Assembly (NCBI GenBank): GCA_964352815.1
Contig: CAYGTO010000003.1
Coordinates: 133,015 to 197,014, forward strand
DNA length: 64,000 nt
From: an uncultured Azospirillaceae bacterium
GTDB lineage: Bacteria; Pseudomonadota; Alphaproteobacteria; Rickettsiales; UBA3002
Direction: 5' to 3'
Part shown: positions 13,665 to 61,602 of the stretch, piece after piece
Layout: every line of letters starts with the position of its first letter
How positions within the stretch are numbered: the first letter of the stretch is position 1
Notes under the pieces: generated by a model
The model's input: the letters and a program-made list of their open reading frames with translations, nothing else
What the model was told of the DNA's origin: nothing
The model's database searches: none
Program-made: the position numbers and the translations under genes

Positions 13665-14687
13665 TTATGAGCTATCTGGCTTACCGATGCGCTGAATCTC
13701 CCATTGGAGCTCCACCCCGAAGTGATCCTTGACCCGGCGGCGCATCTCTTCCCCAAGCGCTTCCAGGTCGCGTGCTGTCGCTGTGCCGGTGTTAATCATG
13801 AAGTTGCAATGCTTCTCCGACATCTGCGCACCTTCTAATTCTAAACCTCGGCCGCCCACCGCGTCAATCATTTGCCACGCTTTGTGCCCCTCGGGATTCT
13901 TAAAGGTGCTGCCCCCCGTCCGCTCGCGCACTGGCTGGGTCGCCTCGCGCGCCTGTTTTATCTCACGAATTCGCTGATGTATCTCTTCTGGCTCACCTTT
14001 CTCAACGCGGAAAATGGCCTTAGTAAACACCCAATCGTTCGGCGCGGTCGAATGGCGGTAGCTATAGCCCAGCTCATCGACGCTGACCCGTTTAGTCTCT
14101 CCCTCGCCGGTGACCAGTTCAGCCGCAATCAGCACATCACTCATCTCCGTGCCATACGCACCCGCATTCATCCGAAGCGCGCCGCCAATCGTGCCCGGAA
14201 TGCCGCTCAAAAATTCGAGGCCAGCAATGCCATGATCGGCGGCGTAGAGGGCGACATTGGCATCCAGGCAACCCGCGCCAACAAACAAAGACTCGTCACT
14301 CTGCGAGGAGGCGCCAGCCTCCGCGGCAGTCCATTCTCGCATCACATCGCTAGAATGGATCGCGTCGCTTCGCTCGCGAAATGCTTCACTCTGAAACCTG
14401 AACCCCGAATCCTGAACCCTGAGCTCCGTAAACCCCCGCCCGAGCTTGATGACCACCCCGTCGATCCCACCATCGCGCACGATCACGTTCGAGCCCACGC
14501 CCAGCACCGTCACCGGCAGGTCTGCGGGCTTCTGCCTCATAAAGTAAGCAAGGTCTTCCGCATTTTCCGGTTTAAAGAGCAACTCCGCTGGGCCACCCAC
14601 CCGAAACCAGTTGGTCTTCGCCAGGTCAGCGTTCTCGCGCAGCTTGCCACGGAGATCAGGCATTATGCTTGTTAGTTCATATTTCAT
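13665..14687 (-). CDS. murB: UDP-N-acetylenolpyruvoylglucosamine reductase, carrying a repeat-derived in-frame insertion
   Basis: GVGSN, GIPGTIGGALRMNAGAYG and GSTFKNP motifs. About 45 extra residues (RVQDSGFRFQSEAFRERSDAIHSSDVMREWTAAEAGASSQSDE) lie between GRGFTEL and LFVGAG. Confidence 0.9.
   Translation of the reverse strand: MKYELTSIMPDLRGKLRENADLAKTNWFRVGGPAELLFKPENAEDLAYFMRQKPADLPVTVLGVGSNVIVRDGGIDGVVIKLGRGFTELRVQDSGFRFQSEAFRERSDAIHSSDVMREWTAAEAGASSQSDESLFVGAGCLDANVALYAADHGIAGLEFLSGIPGTIGGALRMNAGAYGTEMSDVLIAAELVTGEGETKRVSVDELGYSYRHSTAPNDWVFTKAIFRVEKGEPEEIHQRIREIKQAREATQPVRERTGGSTFKNPEGHKAWQMIDAVGGRGLELEGAQMSEKHCNFMINTGTATARDLEALGEEMRRRVKDHFGVELQWEIQRIGKPDSS
14300..14384. repeat. nested-palindrome element, TTCGCGAG subfamily, inside murB
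   Basis: The minus-strand reading gcatTTCGCGAGcgaagcgacGCGATCCATTC...GAATGGactgccgcg...cgcctcCTCGCAGA is colinear with the glyS copy at 63442-63570. Confidence 0.7.
14389..14436. repeat. tandem heptamer array (TGAAACC family) inside murB
   Basis: tctgaaa cctgaac cccgaat cctgaac cctgagc tccgtaa. It encodes the QDSGFRFQS stretch on the minus strand. Confidence 0.7.
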
Positions 14688-28140: not shown

Positions 28141-28223
28141 GTCATCTCGAACACTGCAAGCTTTGGCGAAGCAGTGGAGAGATCTTAGATTTCTCGTCGC
28201 GCTCCGCGCTCACTCGAAATGAC
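28141..28223. repeat. nested-palindrome element (GTCAT...ATGAC family), intergenic upstream of mraZ
   Basis: GTCATCTCGAA...GAGAGATCTtagATTTCTC...CTCGAAATGAC. It has the same architecture as the copies at 41308 and 54193. Confidence 0.8.
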
Positions 28224-28469: not shown

Positions 28470-28540
28470 GGTTTTAGTTTTCAGGTTGTAGGTTACAGCA
28501 TGGCTATTTCTGAAACCTGCAACCTAACACCTACAACCTA
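28470..28540. repeat. inverted heptamer arrays (GGTTTCA/TGAAACC family) forming a hairpin at the rnpB 3' end
   Basis: The left arm is ggtttta gttttca ggttgta ggttaca. A 13-nt loop follows. The right arm is tgaaacc tgcaacc taacacc tacaacc. On the minus strand the hairpin is followed by TTTAT. Confidence 0.75.
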
Positions 28541-28544
28541 TCCA

Positions 28545-29042
28545 ACGAAGAGGGCCGATAAGCCGGGTTCTGTCACTGGCATTGCCAGGGATGGCCATTC
28601 ATCTAGGCCGCTTGTTGCCAAACGGCTCATGCACCCTACCCGAGATGCTGGTGCGAAACTCACTTGCGGCGATTACCTTTGCACTACCAAAAGCGTTCGG
28701 ACACGGCCGCGCGCATCTCCTATTTGGGCTTGCTCCAGACAAGGTTTACCATGCCGCCTGTGTTACCAAAGGCGCGGTGGGCTCTTACCCCACCCTTTCA
28801 CCGTTGCTTTGCATATGCTCCCCGCTTCGGTCGTCTGACCTACGCGATGGAGCGCCGCTCAGGGCTGGCCTTGCTGCTGCAAGGAATATTGCCCCGAAAC
28901 TACATACAAAGCAGTCTACTTTCTGTGGCACTGTCTCTCGGATCACTCCGGGCGGGGGTTACCCGCTGCCTTGTTTCGTGGAGCCCGGACTTTCCTCCCC
29001 CTATCGCGAGCGATAGAGAGCGACCATCTGGCCCTCTTCGGA
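28545..29042 (-). ncRNA. rnpB: RNase P RNA (bacterial type A)
   Basis: The reverse complement contains GGAGGAAAGTCCGGGCTCCA, GGTGAAAGGGTGGGGTAAGAGCCCACCGC, GGTAAAC, GAGCAAGCCCAAATAGG, CCTAGATGAATGG and ACAGAACCCGGCTTATCGGCC. The P1 helix is formed by GAAGAGGGCC/GGCCCTCTTC at the two ends. Confidence 0.93.
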
Positions 29043-34791: not shown

Positions 34792-35061
34792 ATGTATAAA
34801 GCCGATATTCACATTACCCTCAAACATGGCGTGCTTGATCCGCAAGGCAAAGCAAGCCTCGTCGCGCTTGATCACCTTGGCTTCCAGGGCGTATCCGATG
34901 TGCGCCAGGGAAAATACATTGAAGTGATGTTTGACGCGGCTGATGCGAAAGAAGCCGAAGCGCAGGCACGCGACATGTGCGAGAAGCTGCTCGCCAATAC
35001 GGTGATCGAAAAATACGATATTACTATTTCAAAAGCCGCTGACAGCAAGGATGCGGCTTGA
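34792..35061 (+). CDS. purS: phosphoribosylformylglycinamidine synthase subunit PurS
   Basis: 89-aa protein with LKHGVLDPQG motif; located between purC and purQ. Confidence 0.9.
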   Translation: MYKADIHITLKHGVLDPQGKASLVALDHLGFQGVSDVRQGKYIEVMFDAADAKEAEAQARDMCEKLLANTVIEKYDITISKAADSKDAA

Positions 35062-35077
35062 TGCATTATTTCACTAT

Positions 35078-35233
35078 GTCATCTTCGGGGCTTTTGTCAG
35101 TAAGACAAAAGAGCCCGGGGATCCAGGATAAACATGTCAGAAGACATGTTTATTTCCATGAATGTCTTCTGACATTCATGGAATGGATTGCCTGCGACTC
35201 GTGGTATACTGACCACTCGCGCGTGGCAATGAC
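35078..35233. repeat. long (156 bp) four-hairpin variant of the GTCAT...ATGAC element, purS-purQ spacer
   Basis: GTCATCTTCGGGG...GTGGCAATGAC, with perfect internal hairpins ataaacatgtc-agaa-gacatgtttat and ttccatgaatgtc-ttct-gacattcatggaa. Confidence 0.85.
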
Positions 35234-35256
35234 AGCATTATGCAGGAGCGACTAAC

Positions 35257-35940
35257 ATGCATGCAGGCGTCATTATCTTCCCTGGCTCGAACTGCGATCG
35301 TGATTCCATCACAGTTCTAGAACAATGCGGCTTCACCGTTAGCCGTTTGTGGCACGGCGACGCCGATATCCCTAGCGACATGGAATTGGTCGTCCTACCC
35401 GGCGGGTTTTCGTATGGCGACTATTTGCGCTGCGGTGCGATGGCGGCACATTCGCCTATTATGCAATCGGTCATCCAATTTGCTGGCCAGGGCAAATACG
35501 TCCTTGGGATTTGTAATGGGTTTCAGATGCTCTGTGAAACCGGGCTTCTTCCTGGTGCGTTGATGCGCAATCTCGGCCTGTCTTTCCTGTGTAAAGAGGT
35601 GAGCTTGCGCGTGGAAACCGCTGCCTCGCCTTTCACTAAACAGTATACGCAGGGCCAAATTCTGAATGTCCCCATCGCGCATTTTGACGGCAATTACTAT
35701 GCCACCGATGATGCGCTCAAGCTGCTGAATGATAATGACCAAGTCGCCTTCCGCTATTGCCATACGGATGGCACGATGGATGAGCGCGCCAACCCGAACG
35801 GCTCGGCGCAGCATATTGCCGGGATTCTCAATGCTTCACGCAACGTGCTCGGCATGATGCCGCACCCGGAGCGCCACAGCGAATCGATCCTCGGCGGGCT
35901 GGACGGCAAAGCGCTGTTTGAAGGGCTTTTGGCGGCGTAA
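35257..35940 (+). CDS. purQ: phosphoribosylformylglycinamidine synthase glutaminase subunit PurQ
   Basis: Class I amidotransferase with GICNGFQ nucleophile elbow and MPHPER. Confidence 0.93.
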   Translation: MHAGVIIFPGSNCDRDSITVLEQCGFTVSRLWHGDADIPSDMELVVLPGGFSYGDYLRCGAMAAHSPIMQSVIQFAGQGKYVLGICNGFQMLCETGLLPGALMRNLGLSFLCKEVSLRVETAASPFTKQYTQGQILNVPIAHFDGNYYATDDALKLLNDNDQVAFRYCHTDGTMDERANPNGSAQHIAGILNASRNVLGMMPHPERHSESILGGLDGKALFEGLLAA

Positions 35941-36070
35941 TTCAGCTTTTTTGCAACTGCGACGCCAGTAGGCCGGAGCGGGAACAATCTTCATATAATC
36001 GTCACATTTCAGGCCCTATGTCATGCTATACTTAAAGGTGAGAAAGTAATTATTCTCATAGGTTGAAACT

Positions 36071-36598
36071 ATGGAAACATTGAAGAAATTTATGAATGGC
36101 TGCGCCGATGCAGCAGGCTGGGTGGGCAAAAAAGCCTCTGATTTCCCGCTGCGCATTGAAATGCACCATGATACGCGTCCGAACACCACATCGGGCACCT
36201 TGATCGTGGAAGCGATCAAATGGGGCACTGTGGCCGCGATTGGTGCGCTCGGATTCTTTGCCTTTGGCCCTGCTTCAACGGTAGGCATTGTCCTTATGGC
36301 TGTTTCCGGAACCCTCGGCGCCATTAGCCTCTATGACGATATTGGCGGCCTCAAAGACCGCATGGAACGTCGCACCATTCAGCGCATGAAACGCCTCAAA
36401 GAAGATGCGGGTTTAAGCGAAGAGCAAGTCCTCGATCTCTGCCATAGCTCGGCAGAAAAAGACAAAACCACCTCTCCGGTACACAACGCACGCACCGCGC
36501 TCGCAGAGCCGATTGAGGCACGCCGCGAAGGCGCCAAGGAAAGCTGGGCCAGCCGCATTTTAGGCGAGCCTGAGCATACGGCCGAAAAAGCCCGCTAA
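36071..36598 (+). CDS. hypothetical membrane protein
   Basis: 175-aa ORF with two adjacent hydrophobic helices and a charged C-terminal half; inserted between purQ and purL. Confidence 0.5.
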   Translation: METLKKFMNGCADAAGWVGKKASDFPLRIEMHHDTRPNTTSGTLIVEAIKWGTVAAIGALGFFAFGPASTVGIVLMAVSGTLGAISLYDDIGGLKDRMERRTIQRMKRLKEDAGLSEEQVLDLCHSSAEKDKTTSPVHNARTALAEPIEARREGAKESWASRILGEPEHTAEKAR

Positions 36599-36684
36599 AC
36601 ACCCCTTTTCTCCCGAATGACTGATAAGTTTCGCTTGCTCGAAAAAGCGCTGCCACCTATGGTGCATTCAACCAAAGGAGTGCT

Positions 36685-38907
36685 ATGTTGTCTGCGAAAA
36701 AGAAGGCTGATCAAGCCGATGCATTCGAAATCACCGATGCAATCATCTCTGAGCATGGGCTCACCAGCGACGAATATGCGCTGATCAAAAAAATCTTGAA
36801 ACGCGAGCCGAACCTGACCGAACTCGGAATTTTCTCGGTCATGTGGTCAGAGCATTGTTCTTATAAAACCACGCGCAACTGGCTGTCAAAGCTGCCGACC
36901 GAAGGTAAGCACGTGATTTGCGGGCCAGGCGAGAATGCAGGGGTGATTGATTTGGGCGATAATCACGCCGCGATTTTTAAGATGGAAAGCCATAACCACC
37001 CCTCCTTCATCGAGCCGCATCAAGGCGCAGCAACGGGTGTTGGCGGCATTTTGCGCGATGTGTTCACCATGGGCGCACGCCCGATCGCACTAATGAACGC
37101 GCTACGTTTCGGCGACCCGGCCCATAGCAAAACGCGCCATATTGTGCGCGGCGTCGTTGCAGGCATTGGCCATTACGGCAACTGTGTCGGCGTGCCAACC
37201 GTGGGCGGCGAATGTAATTTCCACCCGGCTTATAATGGCAACCCGCTGGTCAATGCCATGTGCGTCGGCCTCGCCGATAAGGACAAAATCTTTTACGCCA
37301 AAGCCAGCGGCGTTGGCAATCCGGTGCTCTATGTTGGCGCGAAGACGGGCCGTGATGGCATCCATGGCGCGACCATGGCGTCGGCCGAGTTTGACGAAAA
37401 TACGGAAGAAAAACGCCCGACCGTTCAGGTGGGCGATCCGTTCACCGAGAAGCTGCTCATCGAGGCCTGCCTTGAGCTCATGGCCACCGATGCAATCATC
37501 GCAATTCAAGATATGGGCGCAGCCGGCCTGACCTGCTCCTCGCTCGAAATGGCTGATAAGGGCGAGCTAGGCATTAAGCTCGACCTCGACAAAGTGCCAA
37601 CGCGCGAAGCCAGCATGACGCCATATGAAATCATGCTTTCAGAAAGCCAGGAGCGCATGCTGATGGTGATCAAGCCTGAGCGCGAACAGATGGCCTATGA
37701 CATTATCAAGAAATGGGAACTCGATATTGCGACCGTCGGTGAGCTGACCGATACCGGCCGTATGGAAGTGTTCATGCATGGCGAATGCGCGGTGGATATT
37801 CCGGTCGCGCCGCTGTCAGACAAAGCCCCGCGCCTGAACCGGCCCTACACGATTCGCCGCGAAGAAATGACGCTTAACGCTGAAGATGTTGCCACCACTG
37901 ATATTGGCCTCGCGCTGCGTAACTTGCTCACTAGCCCGGACATTGCGAGCAAGCGTTGGATTTGGCAGCAATATGATCATATGGTGATGAACGACACCGT
38001 CGTGCGCCCGGGCAGTGACGCGGCCGTCGTGCGTATTCATGGGACCGAGAAAGCCATCGCCATCAGCACCGATTGCACCCCGCGCTATTGCTATGCCGAT
38101 CCGGTCGAAGGCGGCAAACAGGCGGTGGTCGAAACCTGGCGCAACCTCACCGCCACCGGCGCAACGCCGCTCGCCATCACCAACTGCCTGAACTTCGGCA
38201 ACCCTGAAAAAGAAGCGATCATGGGCCAACTTGTCGGCTGTATCGAAGGGATGGCGGAAGCCTGCAAGGCGCTTGATTACCCGGTCGTCTCGGGCAATGT
38301 TTCCCTCTATAACGAAACCCATGGCGAAGGTATTTTGCCAACGCCCGCCATTGGCGGTGTCGGGCTTTTGGAAGATGTGGAGAAGCGCTGCGGCATGGCC
38401 TTCACCGAACCTGGCCATGCGATTTTAGTGCTCGGCAAAACCGAGGGCCATCTGGGCGCTTCACTGTACTTGCGTGATTTGGTCGGCCGTGAAGAGGGCG
38501 CGCCGCCGCCGGTCAATCTGGAAGAAGAAAAATATATCGGTGAATTTGTCCGCGGCCTCATTTCCGTCGGTTTGCTTTCCGCCTGCCACGACATTAGCGA
38601 TGGTGGCTTACTCGTCGCACTCGCCGAAATGTGTTTCGCCTATGAAATCGGCGCCGAAATCGCCTTCCCACCCGAAATCATGCCGCATGCCTATGCGTTT
38701 GGCGAAGATCAGGGCCGCTACCTCATCGCCATGCCCGCGAAGAAGAAGGAAGAAATCATGCTTAAACTCAATACAGCTGATATTGATTTCTTTGATTTGG
38801 GTGAGACCAAGGGCGATCAGTTGATTGTGCGCGGCCTGACCTCCATTCCGATTTCACATTTGAAAGAATCACACGAGGCCTGGCTACCGGGGTATATGAG
38901 TTCGTGA
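36685..38907 (+). CDS. purL: phosphoribosylformylglycinamidine synthase subunit PurL (small type)
   Basis: 740 aa with SEHCSYK and ESHNHPS motifs and duplicated AIR-synthase-like domains. Confidence 0.95.
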
Positions 38908-38917
38908 TATTTTTATT

Positions 38918-39074
38918 GTCATCCTCGGGGCTTTTGTCAGCAAGACAAAAGAACCCGGGGATCCAGAATCTAAAAGGTCAGAAGACCTTTTAGATTTCTC
39001 ATGAAGTCTACTGACTTCATGAGAATGGATTGCCTGGATGCGTTCGCTTACTGCTCACTTACCGTGGCAATGAC
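38918..39074. repeat. long (157 bp) four-hairpin variant of the GTCAT...ATGAC element, purL-bolA spacer
   Basis: The ends are near-identical to 35078-35233. The internal hairpins are aatctaaaaggtc-agaa-gaccttttagatt and tctcatgaagtc-tact-gacttcatgaga. Confidence 0.85.
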
Positions 39075-39098
39075 ACCAACTGTGAAAAGGAGACCACC

Positions 39099-39332
39099 AT
39101 GCCGATGAGCCAAACCGAAATCGAATCACGCATCAAAGCCGCCCTGCCCGATGCTGACATCCAGATGATCGCGCTGGTCGATGATGGTGATCACTGGGAA
39201 ATCACCGTGACCGACGCCACGTTTGAAGGCAAAAGTCGCGTGCAACAGCACCAAATGATCTACGCCGCCCTCGGCAGTGATATGGGCACCACGCTCCATG
39301 CGCTGTCAGTGAAGACGAAATTGCCGGCATAG
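39099..39332 (+). CDS. BolA-family protein
   Basis: 77-aa BolA-like protein (..F.GKSRVQQHQMIYAAL......LHALS.KT). AAGGAG lies upstream of ATG 39099. The listed ORF start (39030) lies inside the repeat. Confidence 0.85.
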   Translation: MPMSQTEIESRIKAALPDADIQMIALVDDGDHWEITVTDATFEGKSRVQQHQMIYAALGSDMGTTLHALSVKTKLPA

Positions 39333-41307: not shown

Positions 41308-41391
41308 GTCATTCTCGACGGCGCTGCTGCGCATGTCGGGAATCTAACCGATACGATCCCCGAGACGAACAGCAGTTCGCTCGAGGATGAC
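41308..41391. repeat. nested-palindrome element (GTCAT...ATGAC family)
   Basis: GTCATTCTCGAC...GTCGGGAATCT...GATCCCCGAGAC...CTCGAGGATGAC. Its reverse complement is largely colinear with the copy at 54193-54277. Confidence 0.85.
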
Positions 41392-43153: not shown

Positions 43154-43984
43154 CTACCTAAACTCAAACAGCGCTCGGAAAATCCCATGCCAGGTGTTTA
43201 CTTCCTGCGTGCTAAGGTCCGCTCTCAATAAAGAAGTGCGGATATTGCGCCACATGGCAGACTTTTTCTCGGGCACGCTCCAGAAATTCGCCTGATCAAG
43301 CATGGGTTCAAGCTGGTCAAACAGCGCCTGTAGCTCACCGTGGGTTGCATTTACACCGTCATCCTGAGAGAGCGCAGCGACCGAAGGATCTTCTATCCTG
43401 TGGCGCGATAGATCCTTCGCCGGCGGCTCAGGATGACGAAGATTAGCCTCCCGAATCCCGAATTCTTGCCTAAACCACTCATAACACACAATATTAACTG
43501 CTTGACCAAGATTCAGGGACGGATAGTCCGGATTCGCCGGAATCGGCAGAATCGCCTGCGCCAGCGTGACATGTTCATTGGTCAGGCCCGTGCGTTCTGG
43601 GCCGAAAAGAATGGCTACACTGTCATCCCGCGATTTAATCGCGGGATCTCTACTTGCATCCAGAGATCCCCTGGTCAAGCCACGGGATGACAACATTTCA
43701 CTAATATCCGCCTCCGGCTTATGCATCTCTCGGTCGCGCGCCGTGGTGGCCAGTACATAGTCACAGTCCGCTATGGCCGCTTCTAACGTGTCATAGAGCT
43801 GCGCCGCCTCAATCAGGTGCTTTGCCCCCGCCGACAGGCTCAGCGCCCGCTCATTGGGCCAGCCATCGCGCGGATTGACAATTCTAAGCTCCGACACGGC
43901 GAAATTATGCATTGCCCGCGCCGCCGCACCAATATTCTCGCCCATTTGCGGCTCAACGAGGATGATTTTCGGAGATTGTTGCAT
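43154..43984 (-). CDS. SpoU/TrmH-family RNA 2'-O-methyltransferase (TrmJ/LasT-like) with two repeat-derived insertions
   Basis: ILVEPQMGENIGAAARAM, ILFGPERTGL and SLNLGQAV motifs. The extra segments LSSRGLTRGSLDASRDPAIKSRDDS and HPEPPAKDLSRHRIEDPSVAALSQDDG coincide with the two repeat copies. Confidence 0.85.
   Translation of the reverse strand: MQQSPKIILVEPQMGENIGAAARAMHNFAVSELRIVNPRDGWPNERALSLSAGAKHLIEAAQLYDTLEAAIADCDYVLATTARDREMHKPEADISEMLSSRGLTRGSLDASRDPAIKSRDDSVAILFGPERTGLTNEHVTLAQAILPIPANPDYPSLNLGQAVNIVCYEWFRQEFGIREANLRHPEPPAKDLSRHRIEDPSVAALSQDDGVNATHGELQALFDQLEPMLDQANFWSVPEKKSAMWRNIRTSLLRADLSTQEVNTWHGIFRALFEFR
43358..43437. repeat. nested-palindrome element (GTCATCCTGAG subfamily) inside the methyltransferase CDS
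   Basis: 80 bp, identical at 75 of 80 positions to 45121-45200, in the same orientation. Confidence 0.9.
43622..43691. repeat. nested-palindrome element (GTCATCCCGCG variant) inside the methyltransferase CDS
   Basis: GTCATCCCGCG-atttaat-CGCGGGATCTCT-acttgcatcc-AGAGATCCC-ctggtcaagcca-CGGGATGAC. Confidence 0.85.
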
Positions 43985-44053
43985 TGCACCACTACAGTTC
44001 ATTGTTTTTTAATGATTTTTCATTATTGTTATATGGTCTAAAAGGAAAATGCA

Positions 44054-44836
44054 ATGCCACGTAGAAAGAACACTGTAAACGTCAAAATACTCGCTTTGGT
44101 CGACACGCTGGATTTACTGCTATCATTAAAAGAAGCAGATCTGCCTGAGGGTGAAACTGATTTATTCCCTGGTCTTGTAGGCCTTCCTGTCTACAAATCC
44201 GCTGATTATCAGTCACAAATCAAACAGTTAAATCTTGCTATGAAATCACTTGCTGACACAATGGGTAAACAACCAATATCTTTTGGCAAATCGGAACGTG
44301 ATCATGATAGGGAAGCTGGCGGCCTGTATGTACTTCATGTTTCTATTCCCGAACCACCTCATGAATATTTAGATATATTACGTACATTTCTAGAAACTCA
44401 TAAAACTAAGCATGGCATTCCAGAAGGCTTCATCGATTACCGCCATACCCCCCAGATGCCTGTGGATTTGTTGATTGCGTGTTTAGCTGAAGTTAGAGAA
44501 AACTCGGCCCCTGAAGATACATCTGCAACATTAGAAACACCAATAAACAACGGGTTACATGCCGCTGCGCTTTCTAAACTCCTCAACGCAGCCAAAGCCA
44601 GCGCTTACGGCGATACGCATGAAATACTATTTAAACCTGCATATACAGGAGTCGAAGTAACCTCATCAGGCATAGGACTGCACGAAGCGATTGATAAGCT
44701 GACATCAAACTTAAAACAGCCAGAGAGAAAGAAGGCGTTTGCTAATCACATCCAACAACCCGATTTCGCGCGGGCAGCTCAAAGCGTTTACGCTGCTTAC
44801 GTAGCGCCAATTGCGCGTTCACATGGGTATGTTTAG
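44054..44836 (+). CDS. hypothetical protein (orphan)
   Basis: 260-aa ORF, AT-richer than neighbours by eye; no motif recognised. Confidence 0.5.
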   Translation: MPRRKNTVNVKILALVDTLDLLLSLKEADLPEGETDLFPGLVGLPVYKSADYQSQIKQLNLAMKSLADTMGKQPISFGKSERDHDREAGGLYVLHVSIPEPPHEYLDILRTFLETHKTKHGIPEGFIDYRHTPQMPVDLLIACLAEVRENSAPEDTSATLETPINNGLHAAALSKLLNAAKASAYGDTHEILFKPAYTGVEVTSSGIGLHEAIDKLTSNLKQPERKKAFANHIQQPDFARAAQSVYAAYVAPIARSHGYV

Positions 44837-46512
44837 CCAAGCAACCCGTAGGTAAGCGCGTCTTTGAGCGCCTCATAGGACGCATCGATAATGTTGTGCG
44901 ACACACCGATCGTGGTCCAGCTTTGACCCTTCTCATTCGTGCTTTCGATCATCACACGGGTCAGCGCGGCCGTTGCATCTTTCGGCGTTAGAATTCGCAC
45001 TTTGTAGTCACTCAGATGCATTTTCTTGAGCTTTGGATAGGTCGGCATTAGCGCGGCACGCAGCGCGGCATCGAGTGCATTGACCGGGCCATTACCCTCG
45101 CCTGCTGTCAGGCAGGTACCGTCATCCTGAGAGAGCGCAGCGAGCGAAGGATCTTCCATCCTGTGACACGATAGATCCTTCGCCTGCGGCTCAGGATGAC
45201 GGTTTGTTTTTTTGGATTTTGTAGCAACCGTCAGCTTCACCGTCGCCTCCGACACCGTCACCTTTCTGCCCTTCGCATTAAATCGCCGCTCATCAGTAAC
45301 ACGGAAATGCTCCAGCTCAAAAAATTCGGGCACCAGCCCCAGCTTCCGGCGCACGAGCAGCTCAAAACTCGCATCGGCATCTTCATAGGCATAGCCAAGT
45401 TTCTCGCGCTCCTTGATCAGCTTGACCAAATCATCCAGCTTCGGGTTCTCTTTCTCTTTGCCAAGCCCCATCGCTTCGAGGCGGGTGATGATGTTTGACT
45501 TACCCGCCTTATCGGACACCAGAATCTGGCGCTGATTGCCGACTTGCGCCGGATCAATATGCTCATAGCTCTTCGTGCTTTTCGCCATCGCCGAGACATG
45601 CAAGCCGCCCTTATGCGCAAAGGCCGCGCTACCAACATAGGGCAAATGGCTATTCGGAATCCGGTTCAGCCGCTCATCGACCAGGCGCGACAACTTTACC
45701 AGCTGCTGAAGTTTTTTCTCAGACGCGCCGGTTTTATAGCCCAGCTTCAGCATCAGATTTGGAATGATCGAAATCAAATTCGCATTGCCGCAGCGCTCGC
45801 CAATCCCGTTGATCGTGCCTTGCACCTGGCGCACGCCCGCTTCCACCGCCGCGATTGAATTCGCCACGGCCTGTTCGGTGTCGTTATGGCAATGAATGCC
45901 CAAATGATCGCCCGGAATATGCTGCGTAATTTGCGTTACAATCTCGCTGATCTCATGCGGCAGCGTGCCGCCATTCGTATCACACAGCACCACCCAGCGC
46001 GCGCCGGCCTCATACGCGGCTTTCAGGCAATCAAGCGTGTAGTCTGAGTTCGCCTTGAACCCGTCGAAACAGTGTTCCGCATCAAACAAAACTTCGCGCT
46101 TTTTCGACACCGCATGGGCGATACTGTCGGAAATCATTTTCACATTCTCTTTTTGTGAGACGCCCAATGCGTTCTCGACCTGCCAATCCCAGCTTTTGCC
46201 GACGATGCATAACGCGCCCGGATGCGCATCGAGCAGCGCGTTCAGCCCCGGATCATTCGCCGCGCTACGGCCATTGCGCCGCGTCATGCCAAAGGCAGTG
46301 ACCTTCGCTTTTTTAAGCTTCGGCTGTTCCGCAAAAAATTGATCATCTGTCGGGTTCGCGCCCGGCCATCCGCCTTCAATATAATCAATGCCGAACTCAT
46401 CGAGCGCCTTCGCAATCGCGATTTTATCAGACACGGTGAAATCAACCCCACGCGCCTGCGCGCCATCGCGCAGGGTGGAATCATAGAGAGTAATGCGGTC
46501 TTGTTTAGTCAT
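44833..46512 (-). CDS. cimA: citramalate synthase-type LeuA-family enzyme with a repeat-derived insertion
   Basis: LYDSTLRDGAQ entry, HCHND metal motif and a C-terminal LeuA-dimer domain. Start placed at MTKQDR (46512). The extra segment RHPEPQAKDLSCHRMEDPSLAALSQDDG coincides with the repeat. Confidence 0.8.
   Translation of the reverse strand: MTKQDRITLYDSTLRDGAQARGVDFTVSDKIAIAKALDEFGIDYIEGGWPGANPTDDQFFAEQPKLKKAKVTAFGMTRRNGRSAANDPGLNALLDAHPGALCIVGKSWDWQVENALGVSQKENVKMISDSIAHAVSKKREVLFDAEHCFDGFKANSDYTLDCLKAAYEAGARWVVLCDTNGGTLPHEISEIVTQITQHIPGDHLGIHCHNDTEQAVANSIAAVEAGVRQVQGTINGIGERCGNANLISIIPNLMLKLGYKTGASEKKLQQLVKLSRLVDERLNRIPNSHLPYVGSAAFAHKGGLHVSAMAKSTKSYEHIDPAQVGNQRQILVSDKAGKSNIITRLEAMGLGKEKENPKLDDLVKLIKEREKLGYAYEDADASFELLVRRKLGLVPEFFELEHFRVTDERRFNAKGRKVTVSEATVKLTVATKSKKTNRHPEPQAKDLSCHRMEDPSLAALSQDDGTCLTAGEGNGPVNALDAALRAALMPTYPKLKKMHLSDYKVRILTPKDATAALTRVMIESTNEKGQSWTTIGVSHNIIDASYEALKDALTYGLLG
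45121..45200. repeat. nested-palindrome element (GTCATCCTGAG subfamily) inside cimA
   Basis: 80 bp, identical at 75 of 80 positions to 43358-43437. Confidence 0.9.
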
Positions 46513-46621
46513 GACGAGCATTAGGCGAGATTTTTGCAAAAAAATCAAGAATCGTCACAATTCTGAAACAATCCTATGTTATTAAGCCCAAATATTAAGA
46601 ATATAAGGAAGGACAAATAAG

Positions 46622-48495: not shown

Positions 48496-48581
48496 GTCAT
48501 TGCGAGGAGCGATAGCGACGAAGCAATCTTTTGAAAGTGACTACTGAGATTGCCGCGCTCACTTCGTTCGCTCGCAATGAC
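48496..48581. repeat. nested-palindrome element (GTCATTGCGAG variant), gltX-nadE spacer
   Basis: GTCATTGCGAG...GAAGCAATCT-tttgaaagtgactact-GAGATTGC...CTCGCAATGAC. Confidence 0.85.
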
Positions 48582-54192: not shown

Positions 54193-54277
54193 GTCATCTT
54201 CGAGCGAACTGCTGTTCGCCTCGGAGATCTATGTTACATCAGATTCCCGACGCTCGCTAGGCTCGGTCGAGAATGAC
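54193..54277. repeat. nested-palindrome element (GTCAT...ATGAC family) upstream of etfB
   Basis: GTCATCTTCGAG-cgaactgctgttcgc-CTCGGAGATCT...AGATTCCCGAC...GTCGAGAATGAC. Confidence 0.85.
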
Positions 54278-60250: not shown

Positions 60251-61210
60251 ATGTCGAAAAGTACATCCAAAACCCCCTTCGCATTCCAGGATATCATCCT
60301 GACACTTCAGCATTTTTGGGCGGAGCAGGGGTGCGTGATTTTGCAGCCCTACGACATGGAAGTGGGCGCCGGGACGTTCCACCCCGCGACGACGCTACGC
60401 GCGCTCGGACCGGAGCATTGGAACGCGGCCTATGTTCAGCCTTGCCGCCGCCCATCCGATGGCCGTTACGGTGAAAACCCCAACCGGCTGGGCCATTATT
60501 ATCAGTTTCAGGTCATTCTGAAGCCCTCACCCGACAACATCCAGCAGCTTTATCTCGACTCGATCGCCGCGCTCGGCATCGATCCGCTCAAACATGATAT
60601 TCGTTTCGTGGAAGATGACTGGGAATCCCCTACTCTTGGCGCGTGGGGGCTGGGCTGGGAAGTCTGGTGCGACGGCATGGAAGTGACGCAATTCACCTAT
60701 TTTCAGCAAGTGGGCGGCATTGAGTGCAAGCCCGTCTCCGGCGAGCTAACCTACGGGCTGGAGCGGCTGGCGATGTATATTCAGGGCGTTGAGAATGTGT
60801 ATGACCTGGTATGGAATCAGGTGCCTGGTGCCAGGGGCCAGGGGTCAGGAAGTCATCCTGAAACCCGAAACCTGAAACCTGTAACCTATGGCGATGTGTT
60901 CCTACGCAATGAACGCGAGCAAACCGCCTATAGCCTAGAGCATGCAAACACCGACATATTGCTGCAACATTTTAAAGATGCCGAAGCCGAATGCGCGCAG
61001 CTTCTTGAAAAGAAACTTGCTTTGCCTGCCTATGATCACTGCATCAAAGCCTCGCATCTGTTCAACCTGCTCGATGCGCGTGGGGTGATTTCGGTGACCG
61101 AACGTGCGGCATATATTGGCCGCGTCCGCGCCTTAGCCAAAGGCTGCTGTGAAGAATATGTGAGGGGTCAGGTTTCAGGTTTCGGGTTTCAGGAAAAAGA
61201 GGCTTCATGA
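60251..61210 (+). CDS. glyQ: glycine--tRNA ligase alpha subunit, with an internal and a C-terminal repeat-derived segment
   Basis: [17 protein letters not shown] entry, colinear with E. coli GlyQ. The extra [22 protein letters not shown] lies before YGDVF. The C-terminus [14 protein letters not shown] is encoded by the heptamer array. Confidence 0.92.
60820..60886. repeat. inverted heptamer arrays inside glyQ
   Basis: The left arm is ggtgcct ggtgcca ggggcca ggggtca. The loop is aagtcat. The right arm is cctgaaa cccgaaa cctgaaa cctgtaa. Confidence 0.8.
61164..61193. repeat. heptamer array, left arm flanking the four-helix-bundle gene
   Basis: ggggtca ggtttca ggtttcg ggtttca gg. This is the inverted complement of 61570-61600. 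Confidence 0.8.
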
Positions 61211-61587
61211 TTCGTTCTTATCAGGATTTAGAGGTGTGGAAGAAATCCTTGAGGCTGGTTAAAGACGTGTATGGCTGCACAAGACTTTACCCAAAATCCG
61301 AACTCTATGGCCTTGTAAGCCAGACACAACGAGCCGCTGTATCGGTGCCAGCCAATATTGCTGAAGGCCGCACGCGTTATTCCAAAAAAGATTTTGTTTC
61401 TCATTTGAAGATTGCTTCTGGCTCTTTAGCCGAGCTTGAAACGCATCTTTTCATTGCCACTGAACTCGGCTATATCACGATAGAACAGCGAGACGCTTTG
61501 TTAAATACATCCGCCGAGATAGGCCGGATGCTCAATGGCCTGGTGAATTCGTTGAAAAGCGAAAAACAACTGGAACCCGAAACCTGA
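61207..61587 (+). CDS. four-helix-bundle protein (23S rRNA intervening-sequence protein / Avd-like family)
   Basis: LEVWKKS..L.....Y.....[44 protein letters not shown] matches the family signature. There is an ATGA overlap with the glyQ stop. Confidence 0.88.
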
Positions 61588-61600
61588 CACCTGAAACCTA
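61570..61600. repeat. heptamer array, right arm flanking the four-helix-bundle gene
   Basis: ctggaac ccgaaac ctgacac ctgaaac cta. It encodes the last residues (LEPET) of the four-helix-bundle ORF. Confidence 0.8.
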
Positions 61601-61602
61601 TT

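Follow-up and report, generated by a model that had tools for sequence, protein, structure and literature searches.

Two long hairpin doublets in an alphaproteobacterial pur gene string, probably palindromic repeat DNA, with central stems that changed in both arms at once

When two copies of a hairpin differ in sequence and still pair perfectly, is it RNA or DNA that has kept their arms complementary? The question is raised by a 64,000-nucleotide stretch of an uncultured Azospirillaceae bacterium (assembly GCA_964352815.1, contig CAYGTO010000003.1, positions 133,015 to 197,014), hereafter the window, whose pur gene string carries two copies of a long palindromic element. Copy A lies between purS and purQ and copy B between purL and bolA. 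All window counts given below refer to these 64 kb of the source genome. An earlier note on this DNA took both copies to be probably transcribed and suggested that they may serve as RNA stabilizers, processing sites or protein-binding modules. Spelled out, this view makes the element a selected cis-acting RNA in the polycistronic pur mRNA, whose hairpins would shield upstream segments from 3' exonucleases, be processed by RNases or bind a protein, and whose stems would be kept by compensatory evolution of the RNA. The analysis presented here favors a different explanation, in which copies A and B are probably selfish palindromic DNA, a repeat akin to NTS/SRM, NIME and REPIN elements whose new long form has a core of two palindromes.

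Both copies share one architecture, in which two outer hairpin units, H1 and H4, flank a core of two further hairpins, H2 and H3 (Table 1). The natural ends of the element are TGTCAT...ATGACA, which places each boundary of both copies one base further out than the earlier note had drawn them (~156 bp, at 35078-35233 and 38918-39074). The copies are co-oriented as direct repeats on the gene strand, 3.8 kb apart. Their 5' blocks are identical at 47 of 51 positions, with mismatches at element positions 8, 25, 37 and 51; the four differences previously counted in the first 50 nt are three in that interval and four in the first 51-53 nt. The sequence TGGATTGCCTG is identical in both copies, as are the final 13 nt (13/13), and the centers differ. 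A 22-nt motif from the 5' end occurs twice in the window, once in each copy, and not at all in 100 shuffles.

Because the left half of each copy is homologous to the reverse complement of its right half, the element is an inverted doublet. The segments TGTCAT, GTC-AG(T/C)A(A)-GAC, ATCCA and GTC-AG(A/T)A-GAC are conserved in the same order in the halves compared, which makes each copy a pair of inverted ~79-nt two-hairpin units, with H4 the counterpart of H1 and H3 that of H2. When DNA parameters are used for folding, H2 and H3 are enclosed by a stem between ATCCA and TGGAT. The outer units contain 52-57% G+C and the H2+H3 core of 57-59 nt contains 33-34%. As RNA, both copies adopt a closed multi-hairpin fold with minimum free energies (MFE) of −78.7 kcal/mol for copy A (z −10.3) and −77.2 kcal/mol for copy B (z −8.9), equaled by none of 200 shuffles in either case. 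In copy A, H1 is capped by a perfect 8-bp stem, CTTTTGTC-AGTAA-GACAAAAG, and the loops of H2 (AGAA) and H3 (TTCT) are reverse complements of each other.

The four central hairpins quoted in the earlier note are exact, with every 5' arm the reverse complement of its 3' arm, and they are the only perfect hairpins of at least 11 bp in the window. H4 is not conserved: its interior is identical at 17 of 29 positions, and its folding energy is −18.9 kcal/mol in copy A versus −11.6 kcal/mol in copy B. In a MAFFT alignment of the four half-elements, the right units are not structurally consistent.

The differences between the two cores carry the argument. Both arms of the central stems have indeed changed together, as had been claimed. 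Of the 58 consensus pairs given by RNAalifold, 10 have new bases in both positions without loss of pairing; nine of the 10 belong to H2 and H3. The central differences amount to five events, every one of them copied exactly onto the partner arm: two indels in H3, and two indels and one substitution in H2. No G·U pair occurs among the ~48 pairs of H2 and H3, against six in the 65 pairs of H1 and H4; at the latter rate, the chance of finding none in 48 pairs is ~0.01 as calculated here. With DNA parameters, both strands fold equally well, at −48.5 and −47.2 kcal/mol for copy A and −44.1 and −43.7 kcal/mol for copy B. In the interior of H4, where the arms lie far apart, divergence is unmirrored and most of the pairing is gone in copy B.

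Under selection at the RNA level, G·U pairs and changes in a single arm ought to be tolerated, and quasipalindrome template switching is a known mechanism by which one arm of a hairpin is copied from the other. Since fast change is combined with perfect Watson-Crick symmetry only in closely spaced arms, the pattern points to central stems kept complementary by arm-to-arm copying of DNA rather than by selection on RNA. The repeat, its hairpins and the coordinated changes seen earlier all stand; compensation is weak ground for a selected RNA structure in view of the mirrored indels, the missing G·U pairs, the equally good folding of both DNA strands and the decay of H4. The 10 pairs that changed on both sides and kept their pairing would also suit an RNA module, as would the G·U pairs of H1 and H4, which include one change from C-G to U·G. 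Rfam 15 matches only RNase P RNA in the window; at the elements, even a threshold of E<=1 returns chance-level hits alone (E 0.07-0.5, at most 55% of the gathering score), which counts against an RNA module, and a riboswitch reading was rejected for lack of an Rfam match.

The setting of the copies is also compatible with an RNA role. Both lie in sense orientation between co-oriented genes, each between the upstream stop codon and the Shine-Dalgarno sequence of the next gene. No intrinsic terminator, defined by a G+C-rich stem with a run of T behind it on the transcribed strand, was found inside either copy, so it is plausible that transcription reads through them. A terminator reading was rejected, there being no plus-strand terminator-like site within either copy. 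A promoter reading was rejected as well: the sole promoter-like sequence is a weak sigma-70-like match (9/12) at 35229-35258 on the plus strand, in which the ATGACA at the end of copy A is followed by 18 nt and TAACAT and which ends at the purQ start; copy B has none.

The two copies do not stand alone. A scan for GTCAT...ATGAC pairs closing a stable fold, in which only GTCAT was imposed on the heads, finds nine doublets in the window, two long and seven short, where shuffled sequence gives 0-1. The unit heads of this nine-member superfamily read Y-GTCAT-Y in all 18 cases, and the tails read (G/A)ATC(T/C). The long left unit has the stem base GTCATCYTCG[A/G]G...C[T/C]CGG[G/A]GATC in common with the family of short doublets at 41308 and 54193 (F1). 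The long right unit, GTCATTGCC...GGCAATCCA, shares its type with the doublet at 48496 and with doublets found in a distant relative. The two F1 doublets have opposite orientations and both lie within minus-strand transcription units.

Three short doublets are inserted in frame in genes, two of them in one for a TrmJ-type methyltransferase and one in that for citramalate synthase, whose products extend ~35 and 44 residues beyond their family profiles. Both 84-nt in-frame copies, at 43355 and 45118 (family F2), encode RHPEPxAKDLSxHRxEDPSxAALSQDDG. The CimA protein of a relative, L016, is without exactly the 33-residue block encoded by 45118-45201. Nine doublets, three of them in frame in genes, and one family in both orientations argue for selfish palindromic DNA. 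These same relatives inside coding sequences, and the family found in both orientations to transcription, speak against an RNA module in the pur mRNA.

Folding differs between the strands. The mRNA-sense RNA folds better than its complement in all seven doublets tested on both strands, namely copies A and B, where the antisense energies are −72.5 and −73.4 kcal/mol, and the short doublets at 41308, 43355, 43621, 45118 and 54193. The doublets at 28141-28223 and 48496-48581, folded with their flanks, show almost no strand difference. This preference favors an RNA module, but in the long copies the gap comes mostly from T·G pairs in H1, which a coding-strand C-to-T bias could yield without selection. 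Because oppositely oriented F1 members both favor the sense strand, the asymmetry arose in place, after insertion; either RNA-level selection or the C-to-T bias could have produced it.

The spacer itself can be compared among relatives. The nearest PurL is 73% identical, and the named relatives among those listed (~68-73%) are labelled as Rickettsiales, Rhodospirillales or Alphaproteobacteria metagenome-assembled genomes (MAGs). The gap between purS and purQ is 3 nt in relative L014, which, like the block missing from the CimA of L016, supports insertion. In L016 (73% PurL identity), the same spacer holds an unrelated palindromic element of 146 nt (13871-14016, −89.9 kcal/mol) with CCTCTCCCTTGGGAGAGG arms. 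Given these two cases, the purS-purQ spacer appears, from sequence comparison, to be a site that tolerates insertions and not a conserved regulatory region, which again speaks against an RNA module. A selected RNA in the pur mRNA ranks second among the explanations considered and is unlikely.

Table 1. Long copies, their hairpins, the short doublets and the genes around them (window coordinates)
Feature	Coordinates	Strand	Description
Long copy A, 158 nt	35077-35234	+	purS-purQ spacer; 15 nt past purS stop, 9 nt before purQ AGGAG
Copy A left unit H1	35077-35126	+	TGTCAT head, base stem ATCTTCGGGG/CCCGGGGAT with 2 T·G, ATCCAG tail
Copy A H2	35128-35153	+	Perfect 11-bp hairpin ATAAACATGTC-AGAA-GACATGTTTAT
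Copy A H3	35154-35183	+	Perfect 13-bp hairpin TTCCATGAATGTC-TTCT-GACATTCATGGAA
Copy A right unit H4	35184-35234	-	Minus-strand reading TGTCATTGCCACG...GTC-AGTA-TAC...CAGGCAATCCA; inverted homologue of left unit
Long copy B, 159 nt	38917-39075	+	purL-bolA spacer; 9 nt past purL stop, 11 nt before bolA AAGGAG (39087-39092)
Copy B left unit H1	38917-38966	+	3/50 positions unlike copy A; fits loop-relaxed SRM
Copy B H2	38967-38996	+	Perfect 13-bp hairpin AATCTAAAAGGTC-AGAA-GACCTTTTAGATT
Copy B H3	38996-39025	+	Perfect 13-bp hairpin TTCTCATGAAGTC-TACT-GACTTCATGAGAA; abuts H2, one T common to both
Copy B right unit H4	39026-39075	-	ATTGCC/GGCAAT base stem and ATGACA end retained; upper stem decayed (−11.6 kcal/mol)
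Short doublet, 83 nt	28141-28223		Intergenic, between mraZ and RNase P RNA gene
Short doublet, 84 nt, family F1	41308-41391		Downstream of rpsD; unit GTCATCCTCGAG...CTCGGGGATC, stem base near that of long left unit
Short doublet, 84 nt, family F2	43355-43438		In frame within trmJ; peptide RHPEPPAKDLSRHRIEDPSVAALSQDDG
Short doublet, 72 nt	43621-43692		In frame within trmJ; left unit is the window's sole strict SRM match
Short doublet, 84 nt, family F2	45118-45201		In frame within citramalate synthase gene (cimA); absent from L016 orthologue
Short doublet, 86 nt	48496-48581		Between nadE and gltX; GTCATTGCGAGG units, type of long right unit and L016 doublets
Short doublet, 85 nt, family F1	54193-54277		Upstream of etfB; orientation opposite to 41308-41391
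purS	34792-35061	+	
purQ	35257-35940	+	
purL	36685-38907	+	
bolA	39099-39332	+	
TrmJ-type methyltransferase gene	43154-44002	-	Host of two in-frame doublets
Citramalate synthase gene	44833-46548	-	Host of one in-frame doublet

Are there further copies elsewhere? The base of the left unit was scanned as the exact pattern CATCNTCGGGGN{20,30}CCCGGGGATCCAG in two collections, neither of which includes the source genome. It occurs at three loci in 185,579 species genomes and at six in JGI metagenomes, with no long copy among them. In all these loci, TGTCATCCTCGGGG and CCCGGGGATCCAG flank an apical part that varies, and a spacer that also varies leads to (A/C)TGGATTCC...GGAATGACA; this is the outward-facing doublet again, here with a partner unit resembling dRS3 and lacking the central hairpins. 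The left-unit base is accompanied by ATTCCCGC...GCGGGAATGACA partners in gammaproteobacterial and Rhodospirillaceae MAGs, and L003, L004 and L016 are the only loci with true ATTCCCGC...GCGGGAAT partners. L016 has three doublets in 22 kb, which include GTCATTGC units, and one of the three has a perfect central hairpin, AAGCCGC-GTCT-GCGGCTT. Viral contigs gave no match to the left-unit pattern or to a second pattern for the long form, and blastn of copies A and B against plasmids and phages gave none either. To catch spurious ORFs (open reading frames) over other copies, the open frames of the conserved block were joined into a chimeric peptide query, which returned nothing at E<=10.

These searches bear on a simple alternative, a one-off local duplication within the pur cluster, with no family and no activity, whose two copies are drifting. 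Only two long copies are known, they lie 3.8 kb apart in direct orientation, and none was seen in the genomes, metagenomes and viral contigs or by the plasmid and phage search; the part of the source genome covered by all this is the window, so absence elsewhere in it is not established. Simple drift, however, does not give near-identical ends together with centers that have changed heavily and remain perfectly paired. Moreover, the heads, tails and stem bases are common to the seven other doublets of the window and to elements in other taxa. Of the explanations weighed here, a one-off duplication is the least probable.

The tips of the hairpins suggest a further alternative. The tip GTC-AGNA-GAC, read on either strand, is invariant in the four H2/H3 hairpins and at both H1 tips, and the flanking stems vary. 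With a stem of at least 6 bp, the tip motif occurs seven times in the window, six of them in copies A and B, where 1.2 are expected. IHF and gyrase bind BIMEs, and by analogy the three to four GTC-N4-GAC dyads of each element could be double-stranded sites for a dimeric regulator or for a nucleoid or recombination protein that organizes or regulates the pur region, which copies A and B bracket from purQ to purL. A 10-bp dyad, however, would need no perfectly complementary, non-conserved flanks of 11-13 bp, and such flanks argue for hairpin extrusion. Neither the seven short doublets nor the related loci contain the motif, and inspection recognized no known operator consensus. A cluster of protein sites on double-stranded DNA is considered quite improbable.

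A comparison with known repeats places the outer units beside the NTS and SRM sequences. The NTS of Neisseria is CGTCATTCCCGCGMAVGCGGGAATCYRG and contains dRS3, and the degenerate SRM, HGTCWYN(0-2)YYVSBRHN(0-5)WNVSBRGN(0-2)RNCYNB, describes hairpins of 20-50 nt (Chenal et al. 2025, PMC11893778). Small GIY-YIG nucleases of the SsnA type bind NTS/SRM hairpins only as single-stranded DNA and in one orientation only, and cut just upstream; for SsnA the three bases ahead of the palindrome and the C behind it are critical (PMC11893778). Genes for SsnA homologues (cd10448) typically have the motif on their flanks. The same authors report that SRMs are abundant in Rickettsia, Wolbachia and Sphingomonas, note their enrichment in symbionts and an IS-like NTS-ssnA-NTS layout, and find that in N. 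meningitidis no more than 2% of NTS are intragenic (PMC11893778).

The window units resemble these in their (C/T)GTCAT head directly 5' of a G+C-rich hairpin and in their ATC(C/T) tail, and they too are directional units of 20-50 nt, abundant and mostly intergenic. The SRM head HGTCWY with the tail RNCYNB is present in 18 of the 18 units of the nine doublets. The full strict pattern matches once in the window (43621-43651), against 0.2 matches in shuffles. Both long left units match it only when the loop limit is relaxed (<=40), because their perfect 8-bp apical stem occupies the place of the short SRM loop. Unlike NTS/SRM, the long elements are outward-facing inverted doublets around a two-hairpin core and carry this extra apical stem, and unlike the meningococcal NTS, three of the nine window doublets lie within coding sequences.

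The overall plan is that of the NIME of Neisseria, dRS3-RS-dRS3, in which the RS segment measures 19-214 bp, falls into many families and has a lower G+C content (Bentley et al. 2007, PMC1797815, as given in the part of the paper drawn on here). Copies A and B likewise have inverted hairpin end units around a variable core of lower G+C, with conserved ends and cores that are variable and mosaic. A core of two perfect palindromes with a conserved tip is not described for RS elements in that part of the paper (PMC1797815). The 20-bp dRS3 repeat of NIME, ATTCCCNNNNNNNNGGGAAT (consensus ATTCCCN8GGGAAT), is not found in the window copies; ATCYTCGGGG...CCCGGGGAT and ATTGCC...GGCAAT stand in its place. 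Unlike NIME, the window units are isolated and do not form arrays.

REP/BIME and REPIN repeats are hairpin units with a conserved single-stranded head, arranged in inverted doublets and mobilized by RAYT proteins, which are IS200/IS605-like Y1 transposases; REPs are also known to stabilize upstream mRNA segments. The likeness lies in inverted doublets between co-oriented genes, transcriptional read-through, abundance and hairpins presumed to act as single-stranded DNA. The head differs, being GTCAT in 18 of 18 units and not GT[AG]G (GTAG/GTGG), and no Y1 transposase (RAYT) is encoded among the window ORFs scanned. Unlike REPINs, the copies have diverged halves, and so form four local hairpins instead of one long hairpin.

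Rickettsia palindromic elements (RPE), reportedly described by Ogata and colleagues in 2000, are said to be inserted in frame in protein-coding genes. Here too palindromic repeats occur in an alphaproteobacterium, and the short members at 43355, 43621 and 45118 lie in frame in housekeeping genes (72 and 84 nt, or 24 and 28 codons). The long copies differ, being intergenic and, at 158 and 159 nt, not multiples of three. The host, at ~52% GC, is unlike Rickettsia, and the likeness is one of description. Integron attC sites offer a purely functional analogy: located between co-oriented genes, they work as folded single strands and keep their structure as their sequence varies. The elements, however, have no R''/R' core sites (RYYYAAC/GTTRRRY) and no integrase, and their neighbors are housekeeping genes and not cassettes.

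These comparisons suggest how a selfish repeat of this kind might work. Each copy would be non-coding and non-autonomous. Its outer hairpins would be GTCAT-headed, ATC-tailed NTS/SRM (dRS3-like) units, and its AT-rich core, with two abutting perfect palindromes that have GTC-N4-GAC tips, would take the place of the RS segment in dRS3-RS-dRS3. An enzyme of the Ssn type, or another hairpin-specific enzyme, encoded elsewhere in the genome, would act on the outward GTCAT heads, one per strand. The copies would have arrived by insertion or local duplication into spacers of ~30-37 nt, and may be tolerated there because they have no terminator and do not disturb the ribosome-binding sites. At replication, one arm of a central stem would pass any change on to the other, through quasipalindrome template switching or repair in an extruded hairpin, and selection on RNA would not be needed for complementarity. 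The pur mRNA would read through the elements, with REP-like stabilization or processing as a secondary matter; as in REP elements, an effect on RNA would more likely be incidental.

Several observations weigh against a selfish repeat. No target-site duplication is visible at the copies. Neither the window ORFs scanned nor the surroundings of the related loci yielded a GIY-YIG, RAYT, IS110 or other transposase gene, so the link to an enzyme is one that we infer. The long units fall outside the strict SRM pattern: the left one has 21 nt where a loop of at most 5 nt is allowed, and the right one gives no match. Only two long copies are available, and for this reason the terms "mobile" and "repeat family" draw mostly on the shorter relatives. 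Both long copies lie within a single pur gene string of 4 kb, a location that could indicate a local role, and the better fold of the sense RNA in seven of seven doublets has been noted above. Finally, template switching alone does not explain an invariant GTC-N4-GAC at six hairpin tips on fast-changing stems; this invariance points to a sequence constraint.

Two variants may also be considered. In one, the central palindromes are a distinct module under active maintenance and not inert filler, with an invariant GTC-AGNA-GAC tip and stems that may evolve by templated copying from arm to arm; they would then be a natural record of quasipalindrome template switching, or else a second hairpin-specific enzyme might read them. 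In the other, the copies form an SRM-gene-SRM bracket around purQ-orf175-purL, where orf175 is a 175-residue reading frame, and an Ssn-type nuclease may control single-strand recombination or uptake of that segment, an effect demonstrated for NTS-gene-NTS DNA in Neisseria. Even taken together, these two variants are improbable. A selfish palindromic repeat, with its shorter relatives in and between genes, remains the favored account.

The labels previously given to purS, purQ, purL and bolA are right, family matches confirming PurS, PurQ, PurL, BolA and Grx. The ORF at 35058-35255 and the 39030 extension of bolA, both dismissed in the earlier note as artefacts of the repeats, are indeed artefacts, since the former has no family match and bolA starts with an ATG at 39099 behind an AAGGAG of its own. 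The orphan ORF of 175 residues (36071-36598, plus strand) lies between purQ and purL and hence between both long copies. It contains hydrophobic stretches, a Logan contig also has a gene call for it, and it has no match in Pfam or NCBIfam. Exact matches to PurS, GrxD and PurL come only from short Logan contigs of runs ERR3535001/2 and, for PurL, also from an NCBI contig. Logan contig breaks near the elements were considered as a sign of high copy number, and this use was dropped: copies A and B have no 31-mer in common and one break lies inside purQ, so the breaks are uninformative on copy number.

Other observations concern the short doublets and further repeats. The class A bacterial RNase P RNA gene (28543-29039, minus strand, 315 bits) has the doublet at 28141-28223 ~320 nt away on its low-coordinate side. 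A search of a representative protein library with the F2 in-frame peptide gave four matches, which are the window's own TrmJ, a 192-residue repeat protein and two chance matches to unrelated repeat proteins. The 192-residue protein, P0122, consists of three tandem copies of YPEPKAKDLRWRSCTGDPSVASLAQD; it evidently comes from another genome or metagenome, where a relative of the short F2 doublet is tandemly repeated and translated. The citramalate synthase of L016 (6469-8178) has a different insertion of ~40 residues (…SPLRGGLGRGASNN…) with the look of a palindromic repeat that has been translated. At 61207-61587, a gene encoding a PF05635 protein (23S-rRNA-IVP / bAvd-like four-helix bundle) lies between inverted GAAACCY heptad repeats (61166-61193 and 61570-61601), and the gene with its bracketing repeats is like a tiny cassette. 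Solo copies of the GAAACCY repeat occur at 60858-60889, 14391-14422 and 28510-28541; one is in frame inside glyQ, whose product extends ~19 residues beyond the Pfam profile. At locus L004, a PF05635 gene lies ~1 kb from the GTCAT doublets.

The central stems are a clean small example of hairpins that change fast and stay perfectly complementary by way of mirrored indels. They call for caution in covariation-based RNA discovery, because compensation alone does not show selection at the RNA level. The practical gains are modest: spurious ORFs are flagged, and candidate substrates for new Ssn specificities are provided. If the favored explanation is true, repeats of the Ssn/NTS type would extend to an uncultured alphaproteobacterial lineage and would be dense there, with nine doublets in 64 kb. 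They would combine inverted doublets like those of REPINs and in-frame entry into genes like that of RPE with a long form that has gained a palindromic core.

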